The notes beneath the pieces were generated by a model. It ran no database searches and was not told the DNA's origin. It was given only the letters and a program-made list of their open reading frames with translations. This document shows positions 1 to 59,368 of a stretch of DNA of 64,000 nucleotides, piece after piece. Where the stretch lies: positions 3,511-67,510 of the forward strand of contig QNYK01000108.1 of NCBI GenBank assembly GCA_003973385.1. Reading direction: 5' to 3'. The DNA is from Bacillota bacterium. GTDB lineage: Bacteria; Planctomycetota; UBA8108; UBA1146. Position 1 is the stretch's first letter; each line of letters begins with the position of its first letter. The position numbers and the translations under genes were made by a program.

Positions 1-1
1 C

Positions 2-490
2 CGCCGTGTATTTGCACAGAGCGTCGAACAGAAGGCCCGTGAACTGGTTTCCCAGCAGTGCGAAACCTTGCCACAAACACTGGCCGCCGCCATCGAGGAG
101 TTTTCTCGATGCTGGAAAGACACGATAGAAGAAACACGGCGTGACACCGTGAAATTAGCCCGTGGGATCGCTCAAAGGGTGCTCCGTCGCGAGATCGAGG
201 ACTTGCCATCGGTGGTAGTAGAAAACATCGAACTTGCAGTGCAGAGAATCGGTGATCGATGTCAGATCGTCGTCGAGGTCAACCCTGCAGACCTCACTGC
301 TGTTGTCCAGTTCCTTCCGATTCTAGGACAGAAGTTTGAAGGTGCAGAGGGTGCCGAGATTGTAGGTGAAGAGTCCATCACGCGCGGCGGCTGCCGAGTT
401 CGCAGTCGCTCAGCGAGTGTGGATCTGACGATGGAAACGCAATTGGATCTGATCGAATCGGCACTGATCAAGGATACCCAGGAGAATTGA
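2..490 (+). CDS. fliH: Flagellar export ATPase regulator FliH (5'-truncated by window edge)
   Basis: Frame is open from position 2. C-terminal 'VEVNPADL...ESITRGGCRVRS...VDLTMETQL' is typical of FliH/SctL. Immediately upstream of fliI. Confidence 0.9.
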   Translation, partial: RRVFAQSVEQKARELVSQQCETLPQTLAAAIEEFSRCWKDTIEETRRDTVKLARGIAQRVLRREIEDLPSVVVENIELAVQRIGDRCQIVVEVNPADLTAVVQFLPILGQKFEGAEGAEIVGEESITRGGCRVRSRSASVDLTMETQLDLIESALIKDTQEN

Positions 491-1812
491 TGAATTTCAT
501 CGAAGCACTCGAGTCACTGAATACGGGTCAGATGGTGAGGGTGCGCGGCACAGTTGCTCGCGTTACAGGAGTGATCGTCGAGGCGCAAGGTCTGTCACTT
601 CCAGTGGGCGCTGAGTGCACCATCCGGACTCGAGAAGGTGATCAGGTGGTGGCAGAGGTGATCGGGTTCTCCGGCGATAGGTGCCACTTGCTTCCCGAGT
701 CGGGCATCTCAGGAATCGCTCCTCAAGATGTAGTGATTCACGACGGAGAAAAGCCCAGCGTCGAGGTTTCTCACCAGTTGCTGGGGCGCGTTATCAATGC
801 AAGGGGGATCCCCATCGATGGAATGGGACCTGTTCCCTGTGGTGAGAAGATGCCAATCCATGCAGATCCAATTCCGGCGCTTGAGCGTCAGAAGATTGAC
901 CGTGCAGTCCACACGGGTGTACGCGCGTTTGACTCGATCCTGACCGTGGGAGTGGGTCAGCGCCTGGGGATCTTCTCGGGAAGTGGTGTCGGCAAATCGA
1001 CCCTGCTCGGAATGATAGCAAGGAACACCGAACTGCCGATCAGGGTGATCGCGCTGGTCGGAGAACGAGGACGCGAGGTCCGAGAGTTCATCGATCGAGA
1101 CCTCGGGCCTGAAGGCCTTGCTCGAAGCGTTGTTGTGGTTGCGACAGGAGATGAAGCCGCAGTGATGAGACTGAGGGCAGCCAAGGTTGCGACCTCCATC
1201 GCGGAGTGGTTCAGGGATCAGGGAAATGATGTTCTGTTGCTGGTGGACTCCATCACGAGAGTGGCTCTTGCTCAGCGAGAAGTTGGTCTGTGCGCCGGGG
1301 AGCCTCCCACCACCCGGGGATACACACCCAGCGTCTTCGGCATGCTGCCACGGCTTCTCGAGCGAACTGGACCTGGCAAGGTTGGAAGCATCACCGCGTT
1401 TTATTCTGTCCTGGTCGAAGGGGATGACCTGCACGATCCGATAGGGGATGCGGTAAGAGGGATTCTCGATGGGCAGATCTGGTTGAGTAGAGATCTTGCG
1501 AACCGGGGCTGGTTCCCACCGGTAGACCCCTGTGCCAGCACCAGCAGGGCGATGAGTTCCGTGGTCGATCCTGAGCATCTCCTCGGTGCTCGCTCGCTGG
1601 TTGAACTGGTGGCGACACACCGGGAGATCGAGGACATGGTGCGTCTCGGTGCGTATGTCCGCGGTCAGGATCAGAGGTCCGATGCCGCTCTCGATGCGAT
1701 GCCATCCATCGAGGAGTTATTGCGTCAATTGCCTTCAGAAAAGAGTGAGTTCGAGCTCACCAGGAAGCGCCTGATCGATATCACCAGTAACTCCAGCAAG
1801 GAGGTTGCCTGA
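490..1812 (+). CDS. fliI: Flagellar export ATPase FliI
   Basis: Walker A GSGVGKS, 'ALVGERGREVREF', 'DSITRVALAQREVGL..GEPP', 'VRGILDGQIWLSRDLA'. TGATG overlap with fliH (ORF track starts at TTG 487). Confidence 0.96.
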   Translation: MNFIEALESLNTGQMVRVRGTVARVTGVIVEAQGLSLPVGAECTIRTREGDQVVAEVIGFSGDRCHLLPESGISGIAPQDVVIHDGEKPSVEVSHQLLGRVINARGIPIDGMGPVPCGEKMPIHADPIPALERQKIDRAVHTGVRAFDSILTVGVGQRLGIFSGSGVGKSTLLGMIARNTELPIRVIALVGERGREVREFIDRDLGPEGLARSVVVVATGDEAAVMRLRAAKVATSIAEWFRDQGNDVLLLVDSITRVALAQREVGLCAGEPPTTRGYTPSVFGMLPRLLERTGPGKVGSITAFYSVLVEGDDLHDPIGDAVRGILDGQIWLSRDLANRGWFPPVDPCASTSRAMSSVVDPEHLLGARSLVELVATHREIEDMVRLGAYVRGQDQRSDAALDAMPSIEELLRQLPSEKSEFELTRKRLIDITSNSSKEVA

Positions 1813-2270
1813 TGTCGACCGAAGAATTTCGACTCGATGCGCTGCTCAAATTGCGAAAGAAAGAAGCCAATCTGCAACAAGGAAAAATGAATGCTTGCAT
1901 CCGGAGACTGGAAGAACAGCACCAGGAAATGGACAGAACCAACCAGGAATACAACGCGGTGGTCACTCTCCTCCGGGAGGAGGATCAGATCGGAGCGACC
2001 CTCTCGGAACTGATGGTTCATCGCAGATATCTCGAACGGATGAGAGATCTGGCGAAGCAGCAGGGGGAACTCTCGGATGCATTGGCAGCGGATCTTGAAC
2101 AGGTTCGAGGTCATGTCATCGAGGCCATCCAACGATGTCGTGCGGTCGAAAAATTGAAGGAACGGTTTGTTGAGCGGGAATCAGAACGTGCCGAACGAAG
2201 CGAGCAGCGCTTCGTCGATGCCGAGACCAGCGCTCGGTTTGCGGCGGTGATCCAGGCGGAATCAGCCTGA
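1812..2270 (+). CDS. fliJ: Flagellar export chaperone/stalk FliJ
   Basis: 152-aa coiled coil starting 'FRLDALLKLR' and ending 'VEKLKER...EQRFVD', directly after fliI. Confidence 0.85.
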   Translation: MSTEEFRLDALLKLRKKEANLQQGKMNACIRRLEEQHQEMDRTNQEYNAVVTLLREEDQIGATLSELMVHRRYLERMRDLAKQQGELSDALAADLEQVRGHVIEAIQRCRAVEKLKERFVERESERAERSEQRFVDAETSARFAAVIQAESA

Positions 2271-2325
2271 CAGGGGCAGAGTCCTGCTCAGTAGCGAGCG
2301 GAACACAGTGGAAGGGAAACCAGCG

Positions 2326-2991
2326 ATGGAAAATCTCCGGAGTCGAAAAAGAAATGAACTCCGCTGGGTGAGAACAGTGGTGCTGTTGGCATTGTTGGTG
2401 ATCGTGGTCACCACATTCATCGATGCACAACAGTTTCCGGTTCCGAAAACAGCAACCAATAGTGATGTGTCAGGAACTCCTGTGCCAGACGAGCGTTTTG
2501 CCAATGGCGGCGTCATTGCTGCTGCAAGTTCCGGCAGTTCCTCTGCGCCATGGAAAACAATTCAGGCACTTGGGGCAATTCTCGTCATCACAGGAGTGGG
2601 AATCGGTGGGTACATATTGATTCGTAAATATGCGCCAGGAGCGATTCCGGGGACGGATTCTCGCATGAAGGTTCTGATGCGGATGCCCATCGGGAATCGC
2701 CAAAGCATCATCATCCTTCGGGTAGGTGACAGGGTGCTTGTTGTGGGCGCTTCCTCCGGCGGCATGAAGTGCCTCAGCGAGATCACCGATCAACATGAAG
2801 TTGAAAACCTCAGCTACGGTGTGGAGTTCTCACGGGAACGGAGAAAAGTAAACGAATTGGTAGATAGCGAGGATCTCGGCGACTTTGTCGAGGACGATGA
2901 GAAAACCAGCGATGTGCAACATGAGATCGAGTGGCTTCGTGACCGCCTGGATGGTTACGGAGAGAAGGTCGAAGGAAAGGTGCGTACGTGA
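2326..2991 (+). CDS. fliO: Flagellar biosynthesis protein FliO/FliZ
   Basis: TM helix followed by 'MKVLMRMPIGNRQSIIILRVGDRVLVVGAS..GMKCLSEI' (FliO beta domain); precedes fliP. Alternative GTG start at 2308. Confidence 0.85.
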   Translation: MENLRSRKRNELRWVRTVVLLALLVIVVTTFIDAQQFPVPKTATNSDVSGTPVPDERFANGGVIAAASSGSSSAPWKTIQALGAILVITGVGIGGYILIRKYAPGAIPGTDSRMKVLMRMPIGNRQSIIILRVGDRVLVVGASSGGMKCLSEITDQHEVENLSYGVEFSRERRKVNELVDSEDLGDFVEDDEKTSDVQHEIEWLRDRLDGYGEKVEGKVRT

Positions 2992-3833
2992 TCAACGTCC
3001 GGCGTTCACTGATTCTGGGAGTCCTCGTGGCGTTTGCGATCTTGTTCATCGCAGCGCCGGAAGCGATGGCGAACGCCGATGATGGTGCAGAGGTAGGAAT
3101 CATCGATCGTATTCTGAGTGGATCTCCGGGCGATGTAGATGTTTCTATCAAGTTGATCTTGCTGACAACAGTTCTCGCCATAGCACCGGCACTGTTGATG
3201 CTGACGACCTGCTTTACGCGAATCATCGTGGTGTTGGGATTTGTCAGGCGAGCCATTGGCACCCAGGATTCGCCACCCAACCAGGTTCTCGTGGGACTCG
3301 CCTTCCTGCTCACGCTGGCAGTGATGGGGCCGGTCTGGAGCGATATCTACACCAATGCGATCCAGCCCTATGCAGACCAGACTCCGATGCCGACCACCGG
3401 GAAGGTGCCTACAGGGGAAGAAGCGTACGCTTACGCAGATTCGAAGATGCGGGAGTTCATGTACCACGCCATCGACGAGGGTGACCTGCTCTTGATGGCC
3501 AGGGTAGGCGCAGCAAAAACTGTCGAGGAACAATACGAGGAAGACGGGATCATCAGCGCTGAATTCGTCGATTCATTACCGACCACGGTGATCATCCCGG
3601 CGTTTGTCCTCAGCGAGCTGAGGCGAGCCTTCGAGATGGGATTCATGATCTACATCCCATTTGTCGTCATCGACCTGGTGGTCTCCGCATTGCTGGTCTC
3701 GATGGGGATGTTGATGCTTCCACCGGTGGTTGTGTCGCTCCCCTTCAAGGTGCTGGTTTTCGTGCTGGTGGACGGTTGGGGACTGGTAGTCGAGCAGCTG
3801 TTGTTCTCCTCGATGGTGACGGTGACCGGATGA
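2988..3833 (+). CDS. fliP: Flagellar export gate protein FliP
   Basis: 'FTRIIVVLGFVRRAIGTQDSPPNQVLVGLA', 'PAFVLSELRRAFEMGFMIYIPFVVIDLVV', 'MGMLMLPP..SLPFK..FVLVDGW'. Confidence 0.96.
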   Translation: MINVRRSLILGVLVAFAILFIAAPEAMANADDGAEVGIIDRILSGSPGDVDVSIKLILLTTVLAIAPALLMLTTCFTRIIVVLGFVRRAIGTQDSPPNQVLVGLAFLLTLAVMGPVWSDIYTNAIQPYADQTPMPTTGKVPTGEEAYAYADSKMREFMYHAIDEGDLLLMARVGAAKTVEEQYEEDGIISAEFVDSLPTTVIIPAFVLSELRRAFEMGFMIYIPFVVIDLVVSALLVSMGMLMLPPVVVSLPFKVLVFVLVDGWGLVVEQLLFSSMVTVTG

Positions 3834-4108
3834 CCCGATTAGATGTAGCACTGGATTTCCTCCAGCAGGCGTTGCTCGTTGCACTGCAACTGTCGGTGCC
3901 AATATTGTTGGTGATGATGATTGTCGGAATTGCCGTGAGTCTCATCCAGGCAATGACTCACCTACAGGATCAAACTCTCACCTTCGTTCCGAAGATCCTT
4001 GCCGTCGCCATGGCTCTGTTACTGCTGATGCCACTGCTATTGGGATGGGCGACCGAGTTCACCAGGGAAATGATCCAGGCCTCCGCCGTCGCGCTGGGTG
4101 GGGGGTGA
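3830..4108 (+). CDS. fliQ: Flagellar export gate protein FliQ
   Basis: 'VGIAVSLIQAMTHLQDQTLTFVPKI'. ATG 3830 overlaps the fliP stop. Confidence 0.95.
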   Translation: MTRLDVALDFLQQALLVALQLSVPILLVMMIVGIAVSLIQAMTHLQDQTLTFVPKILAVAMALLLLMPLLLGWATEFTREMIQASAVALGGG

Positions 4109-4114
4109 TCCAGG

Positions 4115-4948
4115 ATGGCTGAGCTTTTCGAATACTCCATCTCCTCATGGACCGGCTGGTTCCTCGTATTCATGAGGATCTCGGGAGCGATGATGGTGCT
4201 TCCCATCTTCTCTTCTCGCACTATTCCTGCCCGGATCAAGGCCGCGATTGCGGCGCTGATCGCGCTCTGCGTGGCGCCACTGGCCATCGCAGATCCTTCC
4301 GGAACCGGCGCCAGGGAGATGGGGGAGTTGATGGCGACACCGCTGGTTGGCGCCGTCTCCATCTGTGGTGAGCTGGCTCTTGGCTGGGTCCTGGGCGCCA
4401 CTGCAGCGGTATTGATGTGGGGCGCGCACCTCGGAGGACAGTTGATTGGACAGGATTCTGGGCTGGCGTTTGGTCAGGTGGTCGACCCCACGACCGGGCA
4501 AGCGACGGCTCCGACGGCGACATTGATGATGATTTTCGCAGGACTTGCTTTTCTGGCACTGGAAGGTCATCGGCTGGTGATCCTGGCGCTGTGCGGCTCC
4601 TTCGATGCCGTTCCTCCCGGATCCATCGGCAATATCCTGATACACGGGGTTCCCCTCACCACCGCTGCTCGCATCACGAGCGAGATCGGCTCGCAAACCT
4701 GGATGCTTGGACTTCAGATCGCTTTCCCGGCCAGTATCGCGCTGCTGGTGACGACCTTGGGCCTCGGTTTGATGGCCCGGATGATTCCCGAGATGAATGT
4801 GTTTGCGGTTGGCTTTGCAGTGCGTACAGGGGTTGGAATGCTGGCCCTCTTCATGACACTTCCCTTCATCGCTGATCTGTTTGGTGCTGTCGTCTCAACG
4901 GGCCTCCAGGGATCGCAGATGATCCTCAATGGACTCGGAGGGAACTGA
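4115..4948 (+). CDS. fliR: Flagellar export gate protein FliR
   Basis: 'FMRISGAMMVLPIFS...IPARIKA', 'GQLIGQDSGLAFGQVVDP', 'GLMARMIPEMNVFAVGFAVR'. Confidence 0.95.
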   Translation: MAELFEYSISSWTGWFLVFMRISGAMMVLPIFSSRTIPARIKAAIAALIALCVAPLAIADPSGTGAREMGELMATPLVGAVSICGELALGWVLGATAAVLMWGAHLGGQLIGQDSGLAFGQVVDPTTGQATAPTATLMMIFAGLAFLALEGHRLVILALCGSFDAVPPGSIGNILIHGVPLTTAARITSEIGSQTWMLGLQIAFPASIALLVTTLGLGLMARMIPEMNVFAVGFAVRTGVGMLALFMTLPFIADLFGAVVSTGLQGSQMILNGLGGN

Positions 4949-4949
4949 A

Positions 4950-5789
4950 GTGATATTCCAGATGACTGACCACGGTGAGAAGACCGAAGCTCCGACGCGC
5001 AAACGACTGGAATCGGCTCGACTGGAGGGTCGGGTAGCACTCAGCACTGACCTGGTCGGATCCTTCGTGCTGACTTCTGGTTTCGGTTTCTTGCTTTTCT
5101 TCTCCGGGAGCATTTTTGCAGCGATCTTTTCAGGAACCAGGGCATCTCTGGGTTCCATCGGGAGTATCCGACTCGACGAGCAGGCAAGCCTCCAGTTGCT
5201 GACAGATGCGGTGGAACAATCCCTCGTCATCTTGCTGCCGATACTGATGACGTTATTTGCCGTCGCGGCAGTGGTGACATGGTTGCAGGTAGGCCTACGC
5301 ATCCGCACAGAGGAGGTGTTGCCGGATCTGCAAAGAGTCGATCCGATCCGAGCACTGATGAACATCATCGGCCTCGGAGGGCTGAGGCGAGTGGTTATGG
5401 GAGTGCTGAAATTGATCGCCGTGGGAATCGTGCTTGTTCCGGGTATCTGGGGCCTGATGGGGGACTCTGAAGTGATCCGCAGTGCTGCGGTGGTGGCAGC
5501 AGATGGATCTCTGGCTGCGGTCGGCGCGAAACTGGTCGAACTGATCCTGCAGGCATGTGGTGCCCTGCTGGTCGTTTCCGCGGTGGATTGGGCCTACAGG
5601 CGCTGGGTTTACGAGAGATCCCTGATGATGAGCCGGAGAGAAGTCGAGGACGAGAAGAGAGAAATGACCGGCGATCCTCACCTGAAAAGAAGACGCAAGC
5701 AGCGGCATCAGCAAATCCTGGCGAAGCGGGGGCCGGAGTTCACCGACGAGACGTTACTCCACGGCGGATCGACAGGTGATTCCCGATGA
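4950..5789 (+). CDS. flhB: FlhB, C-terminally truncated (no NPTH motif, no CC domain)
   Basis: 'EKTEAPTRKRLESARLEGRV', four TM segments and 'LMMSRREVEDEKREMTGDPHLKRRR'. About 279 aa from GTG 4950 (ATG 4962 alternative). The stop overlaps the flhA start. Confidence 0.92.
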   Translation: MIFQMTDHGEKTEAPTRKRLESARLEGRVALSTDLVGSFVLTSGFGFLLFFSGSIFAAIFSGTRASLGSIGSIRLDEQASLQLLTDAVEQSLVILLPILMTLFAVAAVVTWLQVGLRIRTEEVLPDLQRVDPIRALMNIIGLGGLRRVVMGVLKLIAVGIVLVPGIWGLMGDSEVIRSAAVVAADGSLAAVGAKLVELILQACGALLVVSAVDWAYRRWVYERSLMMSRREVEDEKREMTGDPHLKRRRKQRHQQILAKRGPEFTDETLLHGGSTGDSR

Positions 5790-7951
5790 ACGAGCACCAG
5801 ATGCAAACACTGACGCCAGCCTCCGGGTGGAAAAATACCATCCGCAGGAACCGGGATCTCGCAGTCGTGATGGCGCTCGCTGGGATCCTCATCGCCATCC
5901 TTGTGCCACTGCCCGGGCGATTGATGGACGGGTTGCTCGGCGCGAACATCGGCTTATCAGTGCTGGTGCTACTCACGGTGGTATTTCTGCGAAAGCCGCT
6001 CGAGTTCGCAGCATTTCCTTCCCTGTTGCTGCTGGCGACGCTGTACCGTCTCGCCCTCAACATCGCCACGACTCGATTGGTTCTCAGTCGTGCAGGAGAC
6101 GAAGGAGTTTCGGCAGCTGGAGATGTGGTGCACTTCTTCGGTGAGTTTGTTTCGGGATCCAATTTGATCGTCGGTTTCATCATCTTCTCGATACTCGTGG
6201 TGATCCAGTTTGTCGTTGTGACCAAGGGAGCCACTCGTATTGCAGAAGTGGCTGCTAGATTCACGCTCGACAGGATGCCGGGCGCTCAGATGGCCATCGA
6301 TGCCGATCTCAATGCGGGCAACATCACGGGAGACGAGGCGAGGACTGCAAGAGAGGAGCTCGCCGGACAGGCAGATTTTTACGGGGCGATGGATGGAGCC
6401 AGCAAGTTTGTCCGCGGAGATGCCATCGCCGCGATCATCATCACGATCATCAATATCGTTGGTGGATTCACCATCGGAGTCCTGCAGTACGGGATGACCT
6501 TTGCTGAAGCGGGAAGGGTATTCACGACCCTGACCATCGGAGATGGCCTGGTCACGCAGATTCCTGCACTTTTTATCAGCGTCGCTGCAGGGTTGATGGT
6601 CACCAGAGCATCGACGAAGGGGCAGATCGGAGACGCCGTCGTCGGGCAGTTGTTCGGAAACCCGAGGGCCCTGGCGATCACGGCTTTGATTCTGGTGGCC
6701 CTTGCCTTCACTGGTTTGCCTCCCGGTGTTCTTGGTGTTCTGGCTGTTTCACTGGCGGCTGTGGCTTACTGGTCGCGAAAACCGAACCAGGAGCAGATCG
6801 GTTCAGAGACTGCAGTGGCGGAGCCCTCCCTCGCCGAGACCGTCGCAACAACAGAAGACGCCAGGCAGGGGGGTAGGGCCAGCACGCGCCATTTCGAGTT
6901 CTCAGGCCAGCAACCGATTCGCATCGAACTCGGTTACGGCCTTCAGAGTCTTATTGAACCGGAATCATCAGGAGTTGCACTCAATGTTCGGGTTCAGCAA
7001 CTGAGAGAAGATCTTCAGAAAGAACTTGGATTCTGGATTCCCCCTGTACACGCCAGGGTGCAGATTCGCGGAATCCCGAGGCAAGAGTTCAGCATCCAGT
7101 TGAGAGAGATTCCCTGTTCGCGTGGTGTGTTGAGAGCAAGGAAGGCACTCATCGTTTCAGATCATCGGCGCTCCATAGATGGAATTGCAGGAGATGCTGC
7201 TGAACTGGAGATTCTTGAAGCACCCGCGAAGTGGGTATCGCTCGAAGAGGGTGATATGCGCAAGTCACTCGGATACCGGGTACTGACGGCGCAGGATGCG
7301 CTGATTCTTCACCTCCGAAACGTGATCATGGAACACATTCAGGAACTTCTGACCCAGAAGGAAACTCGCAGGATCCTTGAACGAGTTGGCGAGGAGTGCC
7401 GAACTCTCGTGGACGAAGTGGTTCCGGATCTGCTGCGAGTCGGAGAGATACAAAAAATTCTCCAGTCGCTACTCGCAGAGGGAGTCTCGATCCGGGATAT
7501 GGAGAAGATCCTCGAAACGCTGGGCGAGGAGGTGCAGCAACGTCCTGAAGCGCGCCAGGATCTCACAGCGCTGGCGGAGACGGTGCGAACAGTTCTCGGC
7601 CGCAGCATCTGTACTCAGTATCTGGATCAGCAGGGCAAGCTCCATGTCGTCACCCTGGATCCCCAGATCGAGAGTGTCTTGCTGGACGATCTGGAACCTG
7701 CCGATCGCGCCGGGAATGGCCCGTGTCTGTCACCACAGTTGCATGAGACGGTGATGGAAGCGCTGGTCATGGCGGTACACCAGCTGGTGGAGAATGACCA
7801 TCCTGCAGTCATCCTCACCTCGCCCCGGCTGAGGAGTCCGATCAAGAAGCTGCTGGAGAAGGAAGTGCCCACGGTGGCGGTCCTCTCCTACAATGAAGTT
7901 GGCCACGGTACCACCGTGGAATCTGGGGGGATGGCGAGAATCGTTGCCTGA
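5786..7951 (+). CDS. flhA: Flagellar export gate protein FlhA
   Basis: 'FPSLLLLATLYRLALNIATTR', FHIPEP 'RIAEVAARFTLD.MPG.QMAIDADL', 'DFYGAMDGASKFVRGDA', 'IGDGLVTQIPAL', full cytoplasmic domain ending 'VLSYNEV'. Confidence 0.97.
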   Translation: MNEHQMQTLTPASGWKNTIRRNRDLAVVMALAGILIAILVPLPGRLMDGLLGANIGLSVLVLLTVVFLRKPLEFAAFPSLLLLATLYRLALNIATTRLVLSRAGDEGVSAAGDVVHFFGEFVSGSNLIVGFIIFSILVVIQFVVVTKGATRIAEVAARFTLDRMPGAQMAIDADLNAGNITGDEARTAREELAGQADFYGAMDGASKFVRGDAIAAIIITIINIVGGFTIGVLQYGMTFAEAGRVFTTLTIGDGLVTQIPALFISVAAGLMVTRASTKGQIGDAVVGQLFGNPRALAITALILVALAFTGLPPGVLGVLAVSLAAVAYWSRKPNQEQIGSETAVAEPSLAETVATTEDARQGGRASTRHFEFSGQQPIRIELGYGLQSLIEPESSGVALNVRVQQLREDLQKELGFWIPPVHARVQIRGIPRQEFSIQLREIPCSRGVLRARKALIVSDHRRSIDGIAGDAAELEILEAPAKWVSLEEGDMRKSLGYRVLTAQDALILHLRNVIMEHIQELLTQKETRRILERVGEECRTLVDEVVPDLLRVGEIQKILQSLLAEGVSIRDMEKILETLGEEVQQRPEARQDLTALAETVRTVLGRSICTQYLDQQGKLHVVTLDPQIESVLLDDLEPADRAGNGPCLSPQLHETVMEALVMAVHQLVENDHPAVILTSPRLRSPIKKLLEKEVPTVAVLSYNEVGHGTTVESGGMARIVA

Positions 7952-8000
7952 CTTGCCGAGTCAGCTGGCGGTTTTTTCGCGGGGAAAGGGGAGCGTGCTC

Positions 8001-9431
8001 TTGAATGAGCCAACAGTACCCGGTGACGCGGGGCACACCCGCGTCGTAGCACCGGATTACGCATCTGCAGTTCGCATTCTTCAGGATCGATTCGGGAGTG
8101 ATTGGACAGTGGTCCATTCGCGAAAGGTTCGAAGGCCTGGATTTCTGGGATTGTTCGGCGTTTCTGATGTGGTCGTGATTGTCCGCACCGAGGAAGCGAT
8201 GCTATTCCAGCCTCAGGCAAATCCCGTCGTCTCCTCCAGTGGGAAACTGGCGCCATTGGCCAGAGAGTTGGGCGAGATTGATGTCCCTGTTTCGATCCCT
8301 GACCTCGTGCCGGTCACCGCAGGCAATTTCGAGCCGAGCAACGGAGCGGGGAATCTGGTGTATCGCCTCGAGGGTGCTCGCAGTCGCATCGCAGAGGAGT
8401 TGAAGGCGTATTCCAAATCGCTGGCAGGAGAATCGGCTACCGTTCCATGGAATCCAGTTCCGCCGAGAACTGACGAGGAATCACCGATCGAAATTGTGCG
8501 TCCCGGCGTTGCGATGCAGATGAAAACCGAAAGCGCTGCTTTCCTTGATGGGATGGCTGAGCCGATCGAGCCAGTGAGTACCGAAAAACTGATCGGCAAC
8601 AACATCGAGCAGAGTGAAGGCACGGATGTTGATCCCGCCTTCCTCGGTGCAGTGTTGACTCATTGCGATGTGGCTGGATTTCCTCCTGCGGCGCTGAAGA
8701 CCATCGTGCAGCAGGTTTGCGCCGATCCGATAGACGAGAGCCTGGGTCCCGAGGATTACCAGCAGATCGCCAGGGAAAGGATCGTTCGCTGCATCAAGGA
8801 GCGGATTCCTGACACGATGCAGATCGCAGGCGGATCGGTCGGCCAGCCGAGGGTGGTGGCTCTGGTCGGTCCCACGGGTGTCGGAAAGACCACGACGCTG
8901 GCGAAACTGGCGGCACATTTCCATCTGGTCGAGAAGAGGAGGGTCGGTCTTGTGACTCTCGATTGCTACAGAATCGGAGCCATCGAGCAACTGCGCCGAT
9001 TCGCCGAAATACTGGGCCTGCCTCTGAAAACAGTTTCCGAGACAGCAGGCGCGGCAGAGGCGATCGAGGGGTTCTCCGATTGCGATGTGATTCTGGTCGA
9101 TACAGCTGGCCGTAGTCAGCGCGACCAGGAACGCCTCATCGAGGTGAGGGATTCTCTCGCCAACATCGGAGACGTCGAGATACACCTGTGCCTGTCACTC
9201 GCTGCATCGCCGGAAGCGATCGTCGCCGCTGCGGAATCGTTTCGGATGGTCAAATACGACCGTGTCATCTTCACCAAACAAGATGAGTCGTATCGAAAGG
9301 GGTTCCTCTGGGACCTGTTCGGCGTGACTCCGGTTCCAGTCTCCTATGTCACCTGTGGGCAAGAGGTCCCCGAGGATATCCAGGCGGCTACCCGGGATTT
9401 GATCTGTGACATGATGATTCAGGGAAGATGA
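8001..9431 (+). CDS. flhF: SRP-type GTPase FlhF
   Basis: 'GPTGVGKTTTLAKLA', 'DCYRIGAIEQL', 'DTAGRS', 'TKQDE', 'GQEVPEDI'. Start probably TTG 8001 or GTG 7995; the track start at 7893 lies inside flhA. Confidence 0.93.
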   Translation: MNEPTVPGDAGHTRVVAPDYASAVRILQDRFGSDWTVVHSRKVRRPGFLGLFGVSDVVVIVRTEEAMLFQPQANPVVSSSGKLAPLARELGEIDVPVSIPDLVPVTAGNFEPSNGAGNLVYRLEGARSRIAEELKAYSKSLAGESATVPWNPVPPRTDEESPIEIVRPGVAMQMKTESAAFLDGMAEPIEPVSTEKLIGNNIEQSEGTDVDPAFLGAVLTHCDVAGFPPAALKTIVQQVCADPIDESLGPEDYQQIARERIVRCIKERIPDTMQIAGGSVGQPRVVALVGPTGVGKTTTLAKLAAHFHLVEKRRVGLVTLDCYRIGAIEQLRRFAEILGLPLKTVSETAGAAEAIEGFSDCDVILVDTAGRSQRDQERLIEVRDSLANIGDVEIHLCLSLAASPEAIVAAAESFRMVKYDRVIFTKQDESYRKGFLWDLFGVTPVPVSYVTCGQEVPEDIQAATRDLICDMMIQGR

Positions 9432-10312
9432 GAGACCAGGCCTGGCGACTTCGAAAAATGGTCGAAGAGAAGGTCTTCCCTGTCAGGGGTAGGGCGAGGG
9501 TGCTGGCCGTGACCAGTGGCAAGGGTGGTGTTGGAAAGACCAACATCTCGGTCGGGCTTGCCATCGCAGCCGCTGCATCTGGAATCCGCACCGTGCTGCT
9601 CGATGGAGATCTCGGCCTGGCCAATATCGATGTACTACTCGATCTCCATCCGAGAAAGCACCTGGGTCACCTGATCGATGGAGAGGCGTCTCTCGAAGAG
9701 GTGCTGATCGACTCACCAGGAGGAATCCAGGTACTCCCTGGTGCGAGCGGCTTGACCAGGGTTGCAGATCTTGGAAATGTTCAGAAACAGCGCCTGCTCG
9801 AAGCAGTGGCGAGGCTGGTGGAAGAATTCGATCTGGTCCTGATCGATACGGGGGCTGGAATTTCTCGTGCAGTACTCGATCTGTGCATATGCGCGGGAGA
9901 GGTGCTGGTGGTGACGACACCGGAACCAACTGCAATCGTCGACGCCTATGCGATGCTGAAAGTGTTTTCGACCGAGGCGTCTGCCCCCAAGAAATGGCTC
10001 GTGGTCAATCAGGTACTCTCTCGGGGAGAAGCTCAACAGGTTTCCAGTCGCATGATCGGTCTCGCCCAGCAATTCCTGGGCAGTGAGGTGAACGGTTGTG
10101 GTTCGGTGTTGCTGGATCCGCGTGTCAGGGCATCGGTACGCAGGAGGCAGCATTTCTCTCTGGCCTATCCTTCCTGCCCTGCGGCCAAGGGGGTCAAGGA
10201 AGTGGCTCACAATCTCGGCCTGGCGGGGCGAGCAGGGAGCCATGGCTTCCTCAACCGTCTGAAAGAAATATGGATCGGGGATCGGAGCAGGCCCCGGGAG
10301 CGTTCTATTTGA
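9428..10312 (+). CDS. flhG: MinD-like ATPase FlhG/FleN
   Basis: N-terminal 'DQAWRLR', deviant Walker A 'SGKGGVGKT', 'DGDLGLANID', 'DTGAGIS', 'TTPEPTAIVDAYA'. Confidence 0.95.
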   Translation: MRDQAWRLRKMVEEKVFPVRGRARVLAVTSGKGGVGKTNISVGLAIAAAASGIRTVLLDGDLGLANIDVLLDLHPRKHLGHLIDGEASLEEVLIDSPGGIQVLPGASGLTRVADLGNVQKQRLLEAVARLVEEFDLVLIDTGAGISRAVLDLCICAGEVLVVTTPEPTAIVDAYAMLKVFSTEASAPKKWLVVNQVLSRGEAQQVSSRMIGLAQQFLGSEVNGCGSVLLDPRVRASVRRRQHFSLAYPSCPAAKGVKEVAHNLGLAGRAGSHGFLNRLKEIWIGDRSRPRERSI

Positions 10313-10485
10313 GGGCCAATTACTCGAGATGAGAGACTTCTCGAGAGTGTGGCACGGAAGATGCCAATGGCTGTAGGGCCAGGGCACGCTGGCGGCTGAT
10401 CGTCGGTTCAAAGGGTGGCACCCTTGAGACGACACGGTGGCACCTGTAAGGGTAACGGTAAGAAACTCAGGAAGAGGAGATTCCA

Positions 10486-11331
10486 TTGGCGCAGATCGAG
10501 TCGGGAGAGACACGGCAAGCGATTCCTGCAAACGATTCCCTGGTCGGTAAGACTCGGATGCAGGATGACCCGGAACTCGAGCAGGTGTGGATCGAGTTCA
10601 AGAAATCTCAGAGTACGGACCTCAAGAATAATCTCCTGGAGAGGTATCTGCACATCGTTCGATACACTGCAGACCGTCTTCACATGAAATTACCGCAGCA
10701 GGTCGATGTAGAAGACCTGTACAGTGCGGGATTGTTCGGACTGATGGATGCGATCGATAACTACGATCTGACTCGCATGGTGAAGTTCGAGTCCTATTGC
10801 TCTATCAGGGTTCGAGGTTCGATTCTTGACTCTCTTCGCGCCCAGGACTGGGTGCCGCGCCTGGTTCGCTCAACGGCCAATCGCATCGATGCTGCCTGGA
10901 GGAAGTTCCAGAACGAGACGGGCAGAGAACCTACCGACTTCGAGATGGCTGAGCAACTGGGAGTGACCGACGAGGAATTCGAATCGATGCAGCGAGAAGC
11001 GTCCGCGGCTTCCATCGTCTCGATCTCGGATCAGATTTCTGACGATGGGGAGTCCAGATCACTGAGAAAGATCGATATTCTCAATGACAAGAAGGCCAAG
11101 TCTCCCGACGAAGATTCACTCCGAAATGCGATCAAGGAATTCATCTATGATCAACTGGATTGTCGTGAGCAGGCGATCATCGATGGCTACTACTTCCAGG
11201 GGAAGACGATGAAAAGCATCGGATTGGATCTTCATCTTTCAGAATCGAGAGTTTGCCAGCTCCACTCCCGGATCATGAGCCGATTGCGCCAGACCTGCGA
11301 CAAGCACCGACTCGACTTCATGCAGGATTGA
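10486..11331 (+). CDS. fliA: RNA polymerase sigma-28 factor FliA/WhiG
   Basis: 'DVEDLYSAGLFGLMDAI...KFESY..IRVRGSILDSLRAQDWVPR', 'LSESRVCQLHS'. AGGAGA upstream of the TTG start. Confidence 0.95.
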   Translation: MAQIESGETRQAIPANDSLVGKTRMQDDPELEQVWIEFKKSQSTDLKNNLLERYLHIVRYTADRLHMKLPQQVDVEDLYSAGLFGLMDAIDNYDLTRMVKFESYCSIRVRGSILDSLRAQDWVPRLVRSTANRIDAAWRKFQNETGREPTDFEMAEQLGVTDEEFESMQREASAASIVSISDQISDDGESRSLRKIDILNDKKAKSPDEDSLRNAIKEFIYDQLDCREQAIIDGYYFQGKTMKSIGLDLHLSESRVCQLHSRIMSRLRQTCDKHRLDFMQD

Positions 11332-11372
11332 CGATACTGGCGTCCAGGCGGCAGACGCCGTAACTTGACGCC

Positions 11373-13148
11373 ATGAGCAACTCCGACCGGATCCCCACGG
11401 AACAAGCGCCGCCATCTGGCCACAAGCAACCGCTGCCGAGATGGATGTTCCTCGTCGCAGTGTTGCTCGCCTCTCTCGCAGCGTCCCAGTTCTTGATGCG
11501 TAGCTGGACGCTGGTCGGATTCCCCCAGGAGATCCGCTACGGCGAGGCGGTCGTGCTCGATCAGGCACGCAGGGTGATGGCTGAGCCAGGCCTCTACCCC
11601 GAGATAGGCAAGGAGCCGTGGCTCCTCGACCAGTACGCACCCTTCTATCCATTTCTCGCTCACATCGTCGGTAAGTTTTCTTCTTCACCATACGGTGGCG
11701 GGCGAGCCATCTCGATGTTGGCGACCCTCCTCTCGGCAGTGATGTTGACTCTGATCGTGCGCAGATCATCTGGGATCGCCGCAGGGCTGCTCTGCGGAGC
11801 AGCGATGCTGACGATGATGGAGTTCCTTCGCTTCGGATTCTTGATGAGGGTCGATCCACTCGCATTGTCGCTGGCGATGATCGGAGTCTGGTGCAACCTG
11901 CATCAGAAAACCTCGGTCAGAATTTTCGGTGCGGCTGCTTTCTTCTTTGCCGTCTATACGCGTCAGACGACGGTGGCACTACTGCTGGTGAGTTACATAC
12001 AGATGTGGCGTCAGGAGGGCAGAGTGGCTCTTCGTTGGCCACTATCGCTGCTTGCGGTAGGGCTGCTCTTCTACGGATTTCTTGTTCTGGTGACTGACGG
12101 TGCATTTCATCATCACGCCGTGATGTCGAATCTGTTTCATTTCGAGTGGGCAGAGGGACTGAAGAAAGCATTTTCAAGTTTCATGCCCTGGAGGGCACCA
12201 CTTTTCATCGGCATCTTCCTGGCATTGATCCCGGGCCCTGAACCTGGTGCAATCCGACCCCGCAGAGCCCGCACCGCTGGATTCCTGGTGATGGGGCTGG
12301 CTCTGGGATGCTGTGTTCAGGCACTGATACAGTTCGTGGTTCCCATCAGCGATCCAGCAGTGGTCAACAAATGGATTTGCTACGGACATGTTGTGTTGTT
12401 TGGCTATGCGACCTGGACCATCTTTCGTGGCACCAGCGCCACCAGGGGGGATGGCATCGGGATCGATGGCGTCAGGATCGTGATGGCGCTCGCATCGATG
12501 ATCCTCATCGGGCGCATCGGATCCGATCTGAACTACCTGTTCGAGGCGGGGATCCTGATGCTGCTGGTGTGTGGAGGAGCCATCGGCAGGGTCGCACCAC
12601 CAAGGGCTCTGATCATCTCGTTGTTGCTGGCGATTCAGGTGCTGGGTGGGTTCTATCTGAGCGGTCTGCAACTGGAGTTTCAACCGGAGCGATTGCTGGA
12701 GATGAAGGAACGCCATCGCATCATCGATCACCTCGAGGTTTATCCAGATCCGGTCCTCAGCGAGGAGCCATGGGCATTGGCACAAACTGGACGACCGCTG
12801 ATGCTGGGACCCTACACCGCAAGACAGATGTACGACATCGGACTGTGGGATGGCAAGGACCTGATCGCAGCTCTCGATGCCCAGAGATATTCCGCCATCG
12901 TTCGGGCGAAGCAGAGAAGTTATGCCGGTCTGGAGCATGACGTGAATGGCAACGTCATCATCGCTGCGGACGGATTGCCGATACCGTACTTCGGCCCCTG
13001 GACATTCAACTCGGTCAGGTCGTTACCACTGGAGATCCAGCAAGCCATCGAGGGGAATTATCAGCAAGCACCAGGGACCACCATGATCGAGAGGGTGACG
13101 AAGTACTATCTCGAAGGAAGAGAGATCTGGGTACCGATCCCTCGCTGA
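11373..13148 (+). CDS. Polytopic membrane protein, GT-C (ArnT/PMT-like) glycosyltransferase
   Basis: Many TM helices, first loop 'YGEA...YAPFYP..A', 'GGRAISMLA', 'RVDPLAL', 'YTRQT', and a soluble C-terminal domain. Confidence 0.6.
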   Translation: MSNSDRIPTEQAPPSGHKQPLPRWMFLVAVLLASLAASQFLMRSWTLVGFPQEIRYGEAVVLDQARRVMAEPGLYPEIGKEPWLLDQYAPFYPFLAHIVGKFSSSPYGGGRAISMLATLLSAVMLTLIVRRSSGIAAGLLCGAAMLTMMEFLRFGFLMRVDPLALSLAMIGVWCNLHQKTSVRIFGAAAFFFAVYTRQTTVALLLVSYIQMWRQEGRVALRWPLSLLAVGLLFYGFLVLVTDGAFHHHAVMSNLFHFEWAEGLKKAFSSFMPWRAPLFIGIFLALIPGPEPGAIRPRRARTAGFLVMGLALGCCVQALIQFVVPISDPAVVNKWICYGHVVLFGYATWTIFRGTSATRGDGIGIDGVRIVMALASMILIGRIGSDLNYLFEAGILMLLVCGGAIGRVAPPRALIISLLLAIQVLGGFYLSGLQLEFQPERLLEMKERHRIIDHLEVYPDPVLSEEPWALAQTGRPLMLGPYTARQMYDIGLWDGKDLIAALDAQRYSAIVRAKQRSYAGLEHDVNGNVIIAADGLPIPYFGPWTFNSVRSLPLEIQQAIEGNYQQAPGTTMIERVTKYYLEGREIWVPIPR

Positions 13149-13205
13149 TCCAGTAATCAGTCCTGGAACGGTGGTGACTGCACGGTGGGAGTGCAGGAAA
13201 AAAAG

Positions 13206-13303
13206 TGGCGGGGGTGCATCGGAATCGAACCGACCTACGACGTTGTTCGCGCCGCACCATGGGTTTGAAGCCCAGGAGGCCCACCAGGTGCCCATTCACC
13301 CCC
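13206..13303 (-). tRNA. selC: tRNA-Sec (anticodon TCA)
   Basis: Minus strand GGGGGTGA...TGGG-CTTCAAA-CCCA...long variable arm...GTCGGTTCGATTCCGAT-GCACCCCC-G-CCA. 98 nt, G discriminator, encoded CCA, directly downstream of selD. Confidence 0.96.
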
Positions 13304-13368
13304 GACGGACCTGAGAGTGTCCCAATTCACGCGCGCGGGATCAAGTTGCTCGGAGATGTTACCGGAGA

Positions 13369-14421
13369 TTACCCCAGTATTCGCACTTGAGTGGAACCCT
13401 CAGCAGGTTTGACCTCGCCGATGATGCAGTATCTCTGGACACTCTCTCGCTCCATCGTCTCTGCAAGAGCCCCGAGGTTTTCAGGAGCGATGGCCATCAG
13501 AAGGCCTCCAGAAGTTTCTGAATCGAGAGCCAGATTGAGCAGGTGCGACGGTATATCACCGGACAATTGCAGATGATCACCGAGGTGGGTGCGGTTTCGC
13601 TTCGAGCCACCGGAGACCAGTTCCCTGCGAGCAAGATCTTCGGCTCCCGACAGGATCGGCAGATCTGAAGCGACGAACTCCAGAGTCACGCCGCTGGCAG
13701 CCGCCATCTCGGCGGCGTGTCCACAAAGCCCGAAGCCAGTGACATCGGTGACGGAATGTGCATCGAGTGCAATGGCAGCCTGTGCTGCGCCAGCGTTGAG
13801 GGTAGACATCGATGATGTAGCACTACTCAGCACATCTGCATCCGCTTGTCCCTTGTTGAGAGCGGTGCTCACGGTTCCTGTCCCGAGGGCTTTGGTGAGC
13901 ACCAAGATGTCTCCAGCGCGAGCACCTCCGTTGGTGAGTATTTTCGCAGGATCGATGGTGCCGGTCACTGCGAGTCCATATTTCACCTCGGAGTCGCGGA
14001 CGCTATGTCCGCCCAGCAAGGCGCAGTTGGCTTCCACCAACTTCTCCGCTCCCCCGGCGAGGATCTCACCGAGCAGAGAAATCGGAAGTTCCTGAGGAAA
14101 CCCCACGATGTTGAGCGCGCTCAGTGGTGATCCACCCATGGCGTAGATGTCCGACAGACTGTTGGCTGCTGCGATACGGCCAAAATCCCCGGGGTCATCG
14201 ACGATCGGCGGAAAGAAATCTACCGTCTGGACGATGCAGTGATTGGTCCCGGGAATCTGGATGACCCCGGCGTCATCCAGGGTGCCTGGACCGTGGAGAA
14301 CCTCGGAGCGTGTCGGTAGCTGCAGGTTGGAGAGGACCTCGACCAGGTCCCCCGGAGGGAGCTTGGACGCTCAGCCTGCACAGGATGCGTATTGTGTGAG
14401 TCGAATCTGTTCATCAGACAC
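13369..14421 (-). CDS. selD: Selenide, water dikinase SelD (selenoprotein, Sec at codon 17)
   Basis: GTG at 14421 (AAGGAG upstream) reads MSDEQIRLTQYASCAG-(TGA 14373..14371)-ASKLPPGDL...DDAG...QTVDFFPPIVDDP..FGRIAAANSLSDIYAMGG, in frame with track ORF 13369..14139 (GGHS, TDVTGFGL, ETSGGLL). 350 aa. Confidence 0.96.
14332..14352 (-). promoter_or_regulatory. Bacterial SECIS-like hairpin in selD
   Basis: GGGGACCT-GGTCG-AGGTCCTC (8-bp stem with one G-U pair, G-led loop) begins 18 nt 3' of the in-frame UGA. Confidence 0.7.
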
Positions 14422-14477
14422 TGGTGCTGCTCCTTCCCGGATGAGCGAGGATCACACCACATGAGGATGGCGTCAAG

Positions 14478-15887
14478 TCAGGCTCCCGAAGCGATCTCAG
14501 CAATTCGTGCAGCGATTAACTCAACCTCGTCATCCGAGATGGTCCTCACATCGATAATGACCGAGTCAGCGTGAATGGTAGGGAGCACCGCCGGATCTCC
14601 AGTTCTCAATCTCCTCGCCAGGTCCTCCGCAGTCCAGCCAGACAGTGTCAACTGGGCGGCACGACTTTCGATTGGCCGCCCGGGCAACGAACCGCTTCCG
14701 GCATACCCATCGTGAGAAAGTGCCGTTGCTGAAGCGCCGGGGATGGCAATGATACTCTCGACCAGTCGAGCCAGGCGCGTTTCCAGTTGCTCCGTGGTTG
14801 CCAGAACCCGCTGCAGTGCGGGGATTCGTGCTATCGCTTCTTCCTCGCCACGCAGGTAGATTCGCAGGGTCTCCTCGAGCGCGATGTAAGTCATCCTGCC
14901 AGGCCTCAGTGCGCGGTATAGCGGGTGCTTTCGACAGCGCTCGACCAGTTCGGTGGATCCCACGATGATTCCTGCTTGCGGACCTCCAAGCAACTTGTCG
15001 CCACTGAAGCAGACCAGGCCGCAGCCGTGGGAAATGCTCTCGCGTACGTACGACTCGCCTGTCATGCCCCGGGCAGCGAGATCGACCATGCACCCCGATC
15101 CCATGTCATGGACCACGGGGACACCGTGCTTTCGTCCAATTTCACACAGTTCCTCGATGGTCGTCTCCTCGGTGAAGCCGACGACGCGGTAATTGGAGGT
15201 GTGAACCTTGAGGATCATCGCTGATTTCGCATGGCACGCCTCGTCGTAATCGGCGGCACGTGTTCTGTTGGTAGTGCCGACAGCACACAACTGAGCGCCT
15301 CCCTGCTCCATGATGTCAGGAACACGGAAGGAACCGCCGATTTCCACCAGCTCACCGTGGGAGACGAGAACTTCCTTACCCTCAGCGAGCGCAGAAATTA
15401 GCAACAGTGTTGCACCGGCGTTGTTGTTGACGACGGTTGCATCTTCGGCACCCGTGAGTTCCTTCAGGAGCTTTGCCGCTCCCTCATCCCTGCCGCCTCT
15501 CTCTCCACTTTCGAGGTCGACCTCGACGCGGACAGGGTGTCTGAGCGTCTCGACCAGGACATCTGCTACACCTGGTGGCAGCGGGGCTCGACCCAGTCCC
15601 GTATGAAGCACAACTCCAGTCGCATTCACAACACGTCGGTAATAGGGCTGGATGCGGTGCTCGAGGCGAGCGTCAAGAGCCAGGACGATGCGGTCCTCCT
15701 CAAGCTCGGCAGCATCCACCTCTCCATTGAGTGCCCGGGCACGGAGCGAGTCAAAGAGCGATCTGCACTCGGAAAGCACCAGTGCACGTGAATGACGAGC
15801 ACAGAGTGTGCACACGTCTTCTCGTTGCAGCAGCCGATCGATCTGTGGAAGCCGTCGCAGCAGCTCACCGGTATCGGGACGGTTCAT
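14478..15887 (-). CDS. selA: L-seryl-tRNA(Sec) selenium transferase SelA
   Basis: 'VVNATGVVLHTGLGRAPL', 'VVNNNAGA', 'GELVEIGGSFRVPDIM', 'VGTTNRT', 'KVHTSNY', PLP lysine motif 'FSGDKLLGGPQAG'. Confidence 0.97.
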   Translation of the reverse strand: MNRPDTGELLRRLPQIDRLLQREDVCTLCARHSRALVLSECRSLFDSLRARALNGEVDAAELEEDRIVLALDARLEHRIQPYYRRVVNATGVVLHTGLGRAPLPPGVADVLVETLRHPVRVEVDLESGERGGRDEGAAKLLKELTGAEDATVVNNNAGATLLLISALAEGKEVLVSHGELVEIGGSFRVPDIMEQGGAQLCAVGTTNRTRAADYDEACHAKSAMILKVHTSNYRVVGFTEETTIEELCEIGRKHGVPVVHDMGSGCMVDLAARGMTGESYVRESISHGCGLVCFSGDKLLGGPQAGIIVGSTELVERCRKHPLYRALRPGRMTYIALEETLRIYLRGEEEAIARIPALQRVLATTEQLETRLARLVESIIAIPGASATALSHDGYAGSGSLPGRPIESRAAQLTLSGWTAEDLARRLRTGDPAVLPTIHADSVIIDVRTISDDEVELIAARIAEIASGA

Positions 15888-59367: not shown

Positions 59368-59368
59368 A

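Follow-up and report, generated by a model that had tools for sequence, protein, structure and literature searches.

This work concerns a reduced flagellar operon at the beginning of a 64-kb stretch of DNA (hereafter the window, G000:C5:3511-67510) from a Planctomycetota metagenome-assembled genome (MAG), G000, which comprises 2.98 Mb in 108 contigs and is 92% complete. The operon has lost the genes for the filament, hook, rod, motor and switch, and it has kept those for the membrane ring, the export gate, the ATPase, the pole-placing pair FlhF and FlhG, and sigma-28. This flagellar core seems to have been retained for a different function. We put the probability at about 0.55 that the locus encodes a working, non-rotary system descended from a polar flagellum, most likely one that would move protein into the periplasm at a pole of the cell.

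A flagellar operon without rod, hook, motor or switch genes

The window begins inside the operon, which runs fliF (5' of the window)-fliH-I-J-O-P-Q-R-flhB-flhA-flhF-flhG-fliA and continues into a gene for a predicted GT-C glycosyltransferase. Gene calls were made from a listing of open reading frames (ORFs) together with a Pfam scan, and all are on the + strand. The features are given below in window coordinates, except for fliF, which lies outside the window and is given in contig coordinates.

C5:1125-3188: fliF, 687 aa, outside the window; YscJ_FliF match; its stop overlaps the fliH start
2..490, +: fliH, 3' 162 codons (Pfam FliH, E=1.3e-19); true start at G000:C5:3185, full length 271 aa
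487..1812, +: fliI, export ATPase (Pfam ATP-synt_ab, E=1.3e-79, and T3SS_ATPase_C)
1812..2270, +: fliJ (Pfam FliJ, E=6.2e-8, 33.4 bits against a cut-off of 28.4)
2271..2307, +: fliJ-fliO spacer, the site of fliK-flgD-flgE-mot-fliN in flagellated relatives
2308..2991, +: fliO, 227 aa from GTG 2308, alternative start ATG 2326 (Pfam FliO, E=1e-10)
2988..3833, +: fliP (Pfam FliP, E=1.3e-70)
3830..4108, +: fliQ, 92 aa from ATG 3830, longest ORF from TTG 3776 (Pfam Bac_export_3, E=1.1e-22)
4115..4948, +: fliR (Pfam Bac_export_1, E=3.6e-55)
4929..5789, +: flhB, 286 aa, without the C-terminal NPTH autocleaving domain (Pfam Bac_export_2, model positions 1-243 of 335)
5786..7951, +: flhA, full length including the cytoplasmic domain (Pfam FHIPEP, E=4.5e-220, 1-654 of 657)
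7893..9431, +: flhF, GTPase of the signal recognition particle (SRP) type (Pfam SRP54, E=4.7e-38; TIGR03499, 169.8 bits, just below the cut-off of 174.15)
9428..10312, +: flhG, MinD/ParA-type ATPase (Pfam ParA and AAA_31; 54% identity to FlhG of the flagellated relative G009, at the equivalent operon position)
10350..10364, +: putative sigma-54-type promoter TGGCAC-N5-ATGC in the flhG-fliA gap, GG-N10-GC conserved in relatives
10486..11331, +: fliA, sigma-28 (TIGR02479 FliA_WhiG, 215.1 bits, above the cut-off of 189.6; Pfam sigma-70 regions 2, 3 and 4)
11373..13148, +: predicted GT-C-fold membrane glycosyltransferase, 591 aa, 41 nt past fliA (AlphaFold2 (AF2) model and Foldseek; Pfam PMT_2 only at E=0.0045)

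A preliminary description made from the letters of the window had reported a contiguous and mostly translationally coupled series from fliH to fliA, with fewer than 60 nt and no pseudogene scar between fliJ and fliO, and had proposed that a block of hook, ruler, motor and switch genes was excised there. Each of these points holds. Eight of the 11 junctions from fliH to fliA overlap, and the positive spacers are fliJ-fliO (37 nt), fliQ-fliR (6 nt) and flhG-fliA (173 nt); from fliH to the GT-C gene the distances are -4, -1, +37, -4, -58 (-4 from ATG 3830), +6, -20, -4, -59, -4, +173 and +41 nt. The fliJ stop codon is at 2268-2270 and fliO starts at GTG 2308 or ATG 2326, leaving a spacer of 37-55 nt with no ORF and no scar.

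What stands in the place of this spacer in an intact operon can be seen in G009, the nearest flagellated relative, which belongs to another genus of the same GTDB family. Its operon starts with a histidine kinase, a sigma-54 activator, a 186-aa ORF, FlgC, FliE, FliF (580 aa), FliG (357 aa), FliH, FliI and FliJ. The stretch from fliJ to fliO contains a 237-aa ORF, FliK, FlgD, an 824-aa FlgE, a 250-aa ORF at the motA position, MotB, a 198-aa ORF and FliN, so that fliK, flgD, flgE, motB and fliN are found where the excised block was expected. The operon ends with FliO, FliP, FliQ, FliR, a 364-aa FlhB with the NPTH site, FlhA, FlhF, FlhG, a 109-aa ORF and FliA, and a second locus encodes FlgF/G, FlgH, FlgI, FlgK, FlgL, FliW, CsrA, two flagellins, FlaG and FliD. 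The genes shared by G000 and G009 are collinear, with identities of 46% for FlhA, 58% for FliI and 51% for FliP. The fliQ start at ATG 3830 overlaps the fliP stop, and G009 FliQ is also 92 aa long; FliO has two hydrophobic segments in both genomes. The system of G000 and the polar flagellum of G009 are thus alike in gene order and in the FlhF/FlhG/FliA module, but the flagellum has in addition flgC, fliE, fliG, fliK, flgD, flgE, motB, fliN, possibly flgB, an FlhB with NPTH and the second locus, and it has no detectable GT-C gene.

The preliminary description understated the loss, since fliG, fliE and flgB/C are missing as well, and it overlooked both a tail on FliF and the linked GT-C gene, which are treated below. 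No fliG is present between fliF and fliH in the contig sequence 5' of the window, where a CNNM gene in divergent orientation precedes fliF.

An assembly join between 2270 and 2326 would be a trivial explanation for the short spacer, and it is excluded by nine related loci taken from public MAGs, with FlhA identities from 90% down to 52%. In six of the nine, which were assembled independently (L002, L003, L004, L006, L007 and L008), fliJ lies immediately 5' of fliO. In L009 and L010 the fliI-fliO distance is about 530 nt, space for a fliJ-sized gene only, and fliJ was undetected there by tblastn; L005 starts at flhA at a contig end and is uninformative on this junction. The order from fliF to the 591-aa gene is unchanged in eight of the nine loci, the ninth being the one cut at flhA. 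Because the same order recurs in independent assemblies and the absences are family-wide, the junction is not an assembly join and the regulon is not a split one.

The missing genes were not found at other loci either. Profile searches of the G000 genome retrieved no Flagellin_N, Flg_bb_rod, FliMN_C, FliG_C, FlgM or FliS, and the two MotA_ExbB matches each have an exbD gene next to them, which marks them as ExbB/TolQ-type. When the 48 ORFs of the two G009 flagellar loci were searched by tblastn against the whole G000 assembly, 15 matched. Of these, 12 are the retained operon genes, and the others are one unrelated ORF and matches to paralogues of the kinase and of the activator. No match at E<=0.01 was obtained in G000 for 33 of the 48, including the 824-aa FlgE, two FliC, FliD, FlgK, FlgL, FlgI and FliG. 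FliJ was missed by tblastn yet found by Pfam, so small proteins can slip past this test. The operon contains no ORF for a secretin, SctD or SctF (SctD and SctF profiles were not run), and the five secretin genes of G000 are on contigs C1, C3 (two), C9 and C28, with none on C5.

The same picture emerges from a survey of 28 species genomes of one GTDB family. FHIPEP (FlhA) was found in 28/28 genomes; Flagellin_N, Flg_bb_rod, FliG_C and MotB_plug were found in 4/28 each; and FliMN_C (the FliM-specific profile was not run) and FliE were found in 5/28 each. The four flagellated genomes are always G009, G010, G013 and G016, and the fifth genome with FliMN_C and FliE is G011. The reduced clade consists of 23 genomes in three genera (g1, n=9; g5, n=6; g7, n=8), which are 79-95% complete and 2.6-3.7 Mb in size, compared with 3.5-5.4 Mb for the flagellated relatives. 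Flagellin_N, Flg_bb_rod, FliE, MotB_plug, FliG_C and FliMN_C were each found in 0/23 of these, and the same family profiles score E 1e-10 to 1e-44 in the four flagellated relatives. With 23 concordant genomes and contiguous junctions, it is very unlikely that the genes were lost from the data by chance. A CheW domain was found in 0/28 family genomes, including the four with complete flagella, and hence does not discriminate; motility in the flagellated relatives may operate without any chemotaxis pathway.

Altered parts, a linked GT-C gene and a milder reduction

Several of the retained parts differ from their flagellar counterparts. In 5 of 5 usable sequences of the clade (G000, L002, L003, L007 and L009; the L008 and L010 rows of the alignment were disregarded because the fliR ORF had been picked, and the reference was the 364-aa G009 FlhB), FlhB stops short of NPTH, 7-25 residues past the conserved basic stretch, which bears out the preliminary claim of an FlhB without its switch domain. 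The NPTH site is kept in the FlhB of both G009 and G011. The C-terminal piece is not encoded separately in G000, since tblastn with G009 FlhB matches query residues 5-261 only, genome-wide.

FliF carries about 180 extra cytoplasmic residues past its second membrane segment, which are absent from G009 FliF. This tail gives weak sequence signals to FliG, both with Pfam FliG_N (E=0.031) and with TIGR00207 fliG (E=0.009), and hhalign against an 8-sequence FliG alignment gave E=0.0026 at a probability of 11%, over 40 columns on FliG_N. An AF2 model of the tail has a mean pLDDT (predicted local distance difference test) of only 61; the nine best Foldseek matches to it in the PDB are all FliG chains (E 0.01-0.35), with no match at E<=0.001. 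Nothing was found by BLASTP against G009 FliG or by hhalign against the truncated FliG of G011 (E=0.24), and a feature search of the ESM Atlas gave no usable match. Two further results count against a FliG origin: a profile of the tail searched among 1.84 billion representative proteins retrieved clade FliF proteins and no FliG, and in VIA-align the FliG chains, at Z 5-6.5, stand amid unrelated helical repeats of up to Z 7.2. Taken together, the signals tip the balance modestly toward a tail derived from FliG. Five repeated stretches of a 1569-aa protein, P0024, give weak matches to the FliF-tail profile (E=2.3e-4).

All reduced-clade sequences cluster together (100/100), on a long stem, in a 28-row FlhA tree whose outgroup was ten rows hand-picked from 71 more distant loci. 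Judged by NCBIfam model scores, the export core is closer to flagellar than to injectisome proteins, with 704 bits for FlhA (TIGR01398) vs 570 for SctV, 540.7 for FliI (FliI_clade1) vs 502.9 for SctN, 221.9 for FliP (TIGR01103) vs 171.8 for SctR, 75 vs 59 for FliQ and 148 vs 99 for FliR. The FlhB and SctU models tie at 155.7 vs 158.8 bits. Among FlhA, FliI, FliP, FliQ and FliR only FliP exceeds its equivalog cut-off (217.45), which indicates that the core proteins are divergent.

The 591-aa protein encoded after fliA is predicted to have a GT-C fold, with a multi-pass membrane domain and a periplasmic domain. Its AF2 model (pLDDT 71; predicted template-modelling score, pTM, 0.70) retrieved ArnT (5ezm, E=4.5e-5; 5f15, E=3.8e-4) and AftA (8if8, E=4.2e-4) in Foldseek, and further matches to PglB, ALG12, DPY19 and STT3 have a probability of 1.00 with TM-scores of only 0.3-0.45. 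Pfam PMT_2 scores 17.7 bits on this protein, below its cut-off of 26.1; among its homologues, two carry PF13231 as a precomputed assignment and one bears the name 'glycosyltransferase family 39'. E53, E58, D63, E81 and D86, past the first helix, are invariant among 10 sequences. Only 16 clusters among 5.8 billion proteins match the protein, and those with a named source come from Planctomycetota MAGs. The gene is present in 23/23 reduced-clade genomes, always within a few kb of flhA, and was found with the 591-aa query in 0/4 flagellated relatives. As the 41-nt spacer between fliA and this gene has no room for a promoter, the two are probably co-transcribed. Between the fliA stop and the GT-C start, at window positions 11339-11359, is an inverted repeat with 6-nt arms and a 9-nt loop, which is less clear in other genera.

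The sigma-54-type site at 10350-10364 is the sole match in the window, with 0.34 expected by chance. Its GG-N10-GC core is kept in 10 of 10 aligned loci, and the flhG-fliA spacer is otherwise variable. Two rpoN genes are present in the 3-Mb genome of G000 (G000:C70:8960-9436 and G000:C35:5509-5985). No sigma-54 promoter is evident before fliF in G000; in L009 and L010, of genus g7, a good sigma-54-type promoter (TGGCA-N-CTGC spacing) lies about 90 nt 5' of fliF.

A milder reduction is found in the same family in G011 (genus g4, 82% complete; locus L097, G011:C7:1-20000), whose gene order is sigma-54 activator, FliE, FliF (519 aa), FliG, FliI, FliJ, FliN, FliO, FliP, FliQ, FliR, FlhB, FlhA, FlhF, FlhG and FliA. 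G011 is also without the fliK-to-fliL block, and it keeps FliE and FliN; its FliG is 234 aa long with the N and M domains only, and its FlhB is full with the switch domain. Hook, filament, stator and FliG_C were not found in this genome. A GT-C-like fragment lies at a contig end near the operon, beyond an ornithine decarboxylase gene. In the 28-row tree G011 FlhA clusters with the flagellated relatives on a long branch, and G011 could be either an intermediate or a separate loss.

Past the GT-C gene of G000 the genes are on the opposite strand, and the remainder of the window is housekeeping. A scan for intrinsic terminators over positions 1-14500 found 12 where 9.1 were expected, so the operon end cannot be called. 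Adjoining the operon at 13369-15887 (-) are an AIR-synthase-related gene, possibly selD-like, and a gene for selenocysteine synthase SelA; the G000 organism probably uses selenocysteine. A small PilZ-domain protein at 29594-30058 (-) hints at cyclic di-GMP signalling in a genome without a flagellar motor. Two neighbouring DUF4140/DUF4139 proteins are encoded at 52929-56479, two neighbouring D12-class adenine methyltransferase genes lie at 57976-60565, and a 962-aa ORF at 61093-63981 (+) matches no Pfam family at E<=1e-5.

Proposed function and competing explanations

Every retained gene is under purifying selection, in keeping with the intact export machinery that the preliminary description had proposed. 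Nei-Gojobori ratios of nonsynonymous to synonymous substitution rates (dN/dS) were calculated across relatives for four pairs with unsaturated dS of 0.1-0.44; the pairs L007/L008 and L009/L010 were dropped as saturated (dS >1 or undefined), the FliF value of L007/L008 being an artefact of sequence extraction. The ratios are 0.03-0.38 over all 14 genes, compared with 0.10-0.28 for three neighbouring housekeeping genes. They are lowest for FliI (0.03-0.06), FliP (0.04-0.11), FliR (0.06-0.09) and FlhG, and highest for FliF, FliH, FliJ and FliO (0.13-0.38). For FlhA the transmembrane part has 0.12-0.14 and the cytoplasmic C-terminal domain 0.14-0.30, and the FliF tail has 0.16-0.38. The nucleotide-binding motifs are intact in FliI (Walker A GSGVGKST, Walker B LLLVDS) and present in FlhF (GPTGVGKT, DTAG, TKQD) and FlhG (KGGVGKT). 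Contigs of 150-680 nt from the RNA libraries of three studies match fliH, fliI, fliP, fliQ, fliR, flhA, flhF, flhG and fliA at 95-99% identity; none lies over window positions 12007-13340, at the 3' part of the GT-C gene, which is uninformative for contigs.

By analogy with flagella, FlhF and FlhG would place the complex at a pole and the FliF ring would house the gate. A FliO-assisted FliPQR-FlhB-FlhA gate, driven by the proton-motive force and aided by FliHIJ, would then pass unfolded protein over the cytoplasmic membrane. Since FliE and a rod, which could extend the channel, are missing and the locus has no secretin, export would end in the periplasm. With neither an FlhB C-terminal domain nor FliK, there would be no substrate switch and presumably a single substrate class. 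The conserved sigma-54-type promoter would drive fliA and the GT-C gene. GT-C family enzymes work on the periplasmic face with lipid-linked sugars, and the probably co-transcribed enzyme may have the exported substrate, or the envelope at the export site, as its target for modification. PMT enzymes (protein O-mannosyltransferases), which act at the Sec translocon, offer a parallel for a GT-C enzyme at an export gate. A more ambitious version joins all of these elements: the system would be an independent re-run of the first step from flagellum to injectisome, a polar cytoplasm-to-periplasm translocase whose GT-C enzyme glycosylates the unfolded substrates as they emerge, with a FliG remnant on FliF in place of the C ring. 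We offer this combination tentatively, and as a whole we consider it rather unlikely.

A number of observations weigh against a working secretion machine, or against the regulatory scheme and the links that we attach to it. Secretion and pole targeting are assigned from the roles of these protein families elsewhere. The C-terminal domain of FlhB docks early substrates in flagella, and a gate whose FlhB is without this docking domain might be unable to export anything. [quoted passage not shown] What ties the putative GT-C enzyme to the export machine is synteny and co-occurrence. A scan for sigma-28 sites (TAAA-N14-16-GCCGATAA-like) gave 0 matches in G000 and in the flagellar loci of G009, and a looser scan gave 64 matches, mostly intragenic and uninterpretable; the regions 5' of the relatives' flagellin genes likewise contain no usable sigma-28 motif. 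The RNA contigs lend weak support to transcription, being strandless and open to DNA carry-over. Finally, all genomes here are MAGs, 79-95% complete, and the absences are to be read as 'not found'.

The main rival to periplasmic export is a non-secretory job at the pole, in which the complex would be a landmark, an organiser of the cell cycle or of division, or a checkpoint feeding a sigma-54-to-sigma-28 cascade, with the gate kept only for assembly of the ring. Such a role would suit the conservation of FlhF, FlhG and FliA, which are among the best-conserved proteins (dN/dS 0.03-0.26), and the conserved sigma-54-type promoter before fliA. It would also suit the loss of the substrate-docking domain of FlhB with no known substrate or chaperone left, and it has a precedent in Campylobacter, where, by the account in PMC3760246, activation of the flagellar two-component system requires the MS (membrane/supramembrane) ring, the rotor and the T3SS. 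However, the channel and energy parts (FliI, FliP, FliR and the FlhA cytoplasmic domain) are the most constrained and the Walker motifs are kept, which is hard to explain without transport, and a pure landmark needs no FliH, FliI or FliJ. We therefore consider a polar role without secretion unlikely, though a serious competitor.

Considerably less probable is a role of the export core as the base of membrane tubes or vesicles, along the lines of the nanotube 'CORE' idea in B. subtilis. Export cores that persist without other flagellar genes have been proposed to nucleate nanotubes (PMC6456723), but this proposal is disputed in PMC7532143, where nanotubes are described as a manifestation of cell death, and FliF, FliHIJ, FlhF/G and FliA, none of which belongs to the proposed CORE, are all retained here.

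We give very little credence to an ordinary split regulon whose missing genes were left unassembled or are too divergent to detect. All the genomes are MAGs, that of G000 being in 108 contigs and 92% complete, and the failure of tblastn to find FliJ illustrates how a gene might be missed; nevertheless, the deletions lie within a contiguous operon in 8 independent assemblies, the profiles that find the genes in four relatives come back empty in 23 genomes, and large conserved proteins give no tblastn match. A relic on its way to loss, which the small genomes of the clade (2.6-3.7 Mb vs 3.5-5.4 Mb in flagellated relatives) and the faster evolution of FliF, FliH, FliJ and FliO (dN/dS 0.13-0.38) might suggest, is just as improbable, since three genera, with FlhA identities down to 52%, share all 13 flagellar genes intact and in one order, dN/dS is within the range of the housekeeping neighbours, new parts (the FliF tail and the GT-C gene) were gained and fixed, and RNA-library contigs match the operon.

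Relation to known reduced systems and significance

In gene content, the system comes closest to the reduced 'Myxo' T3SS of the Myxococcales, which PMC3459982 describes as being without FlgBCDEK, FliE, FliG, FlgH, MotAB, secretin and needle. Both systems are without axial parts, FliG, stator and secretin. Abby and Rocha (2012) considered that the Myxo T3SS could at most translocate protein to the periplasm, and found it conserved over several genomes and not decaying (PMC3459982). Unlike it, the Planctomycetota system is collinear with its relatives' flagellar operon, keeps FliF (not SctJ/SctD), FliO, FlhF, FlhG and FliA, and adds a truncated FlhB, the FliF tail and the putative GT-C partner; the comparison is with the Myxo system as that paper describes it. 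The collinearity with relatives and the higher scores against flagellar models suggest an independent and more recent reduction, and the Planctomycetota case appears to be independent of the Myxo group. For Planctomycetes, PMC3459982 reports only flagella.

Buchnera aphidicola, as described in PMC8109811, no longer has flagellin and motor genes, keeps and expresses the export apparatus in basal bodies, and has had protein transport suggested as a role for it. According to the same source, Buchnera keeps the rod genes flgB, C, F and G together with flgH and some hook genes (flgD, E and K), and thus an envelope-spanning channel. In contrast, the system described here has no axial or outer-ring protein, and it occurs in free-living marine MAGs (per record titles and run labels) rather than in an endosymbiont. 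The 'FT3SS-like system' of Lysobacter enzymogenes OH11, a bacterium without flagella, consists of residual flagellar T3SS genes that are expressed, and a fliI mutant secretes less of certain proteins, according to PMC7688988. OH11 keeps flgE, flgC, flgG, flgH, flgI, fliN and flgD, while fliH and fliJ were not found by its authors (PMC7688988). With its full ATPase complex and no hook-basal body, the Planctomycetota system is the converse of OH11, as far as the latter is described there.

The persistence of export cores is itself not new. Bhattacharya et al. (2019) noted that bacteria lacking most flagellar and injectisome genes still carry FliOPQR, FlhB and FlhA (PMC6456723). Their examples of 'CORE' persistence are Myxococci, Chloracidobacterium and Succinatimonas, and the main text of that paper names no Planctomycetota. 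In the titles and abstracts listed by our literature searches we found no description of the present system; supplements, which may list such genomes, were outside this search.

Deep trees are the usual basis for inferring how a motility organelle turns into a secretion system. In the present case a single family holds three stages, namely a full polar flagellum in four species genomes, the partly stripped form of G011, and the minimal form fixed in 23. The family makes testable the order of the losses, the truncation of FlhB, the tail of FliF, the faster evolution of FlhA and the gain of the GT-C gene. It also poses a functional question, which is what remains for an fT3SS to export once all its known substrates are lost. 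As the clade is marine and has matches in hydrothermal-plume RNA libraries, material for proteomics and cryotomography may be obtainable. If the locus does encode a periplasm-directed translocase coupled to glycosylation, it would represent a new protein-export route in diderm bacteria.

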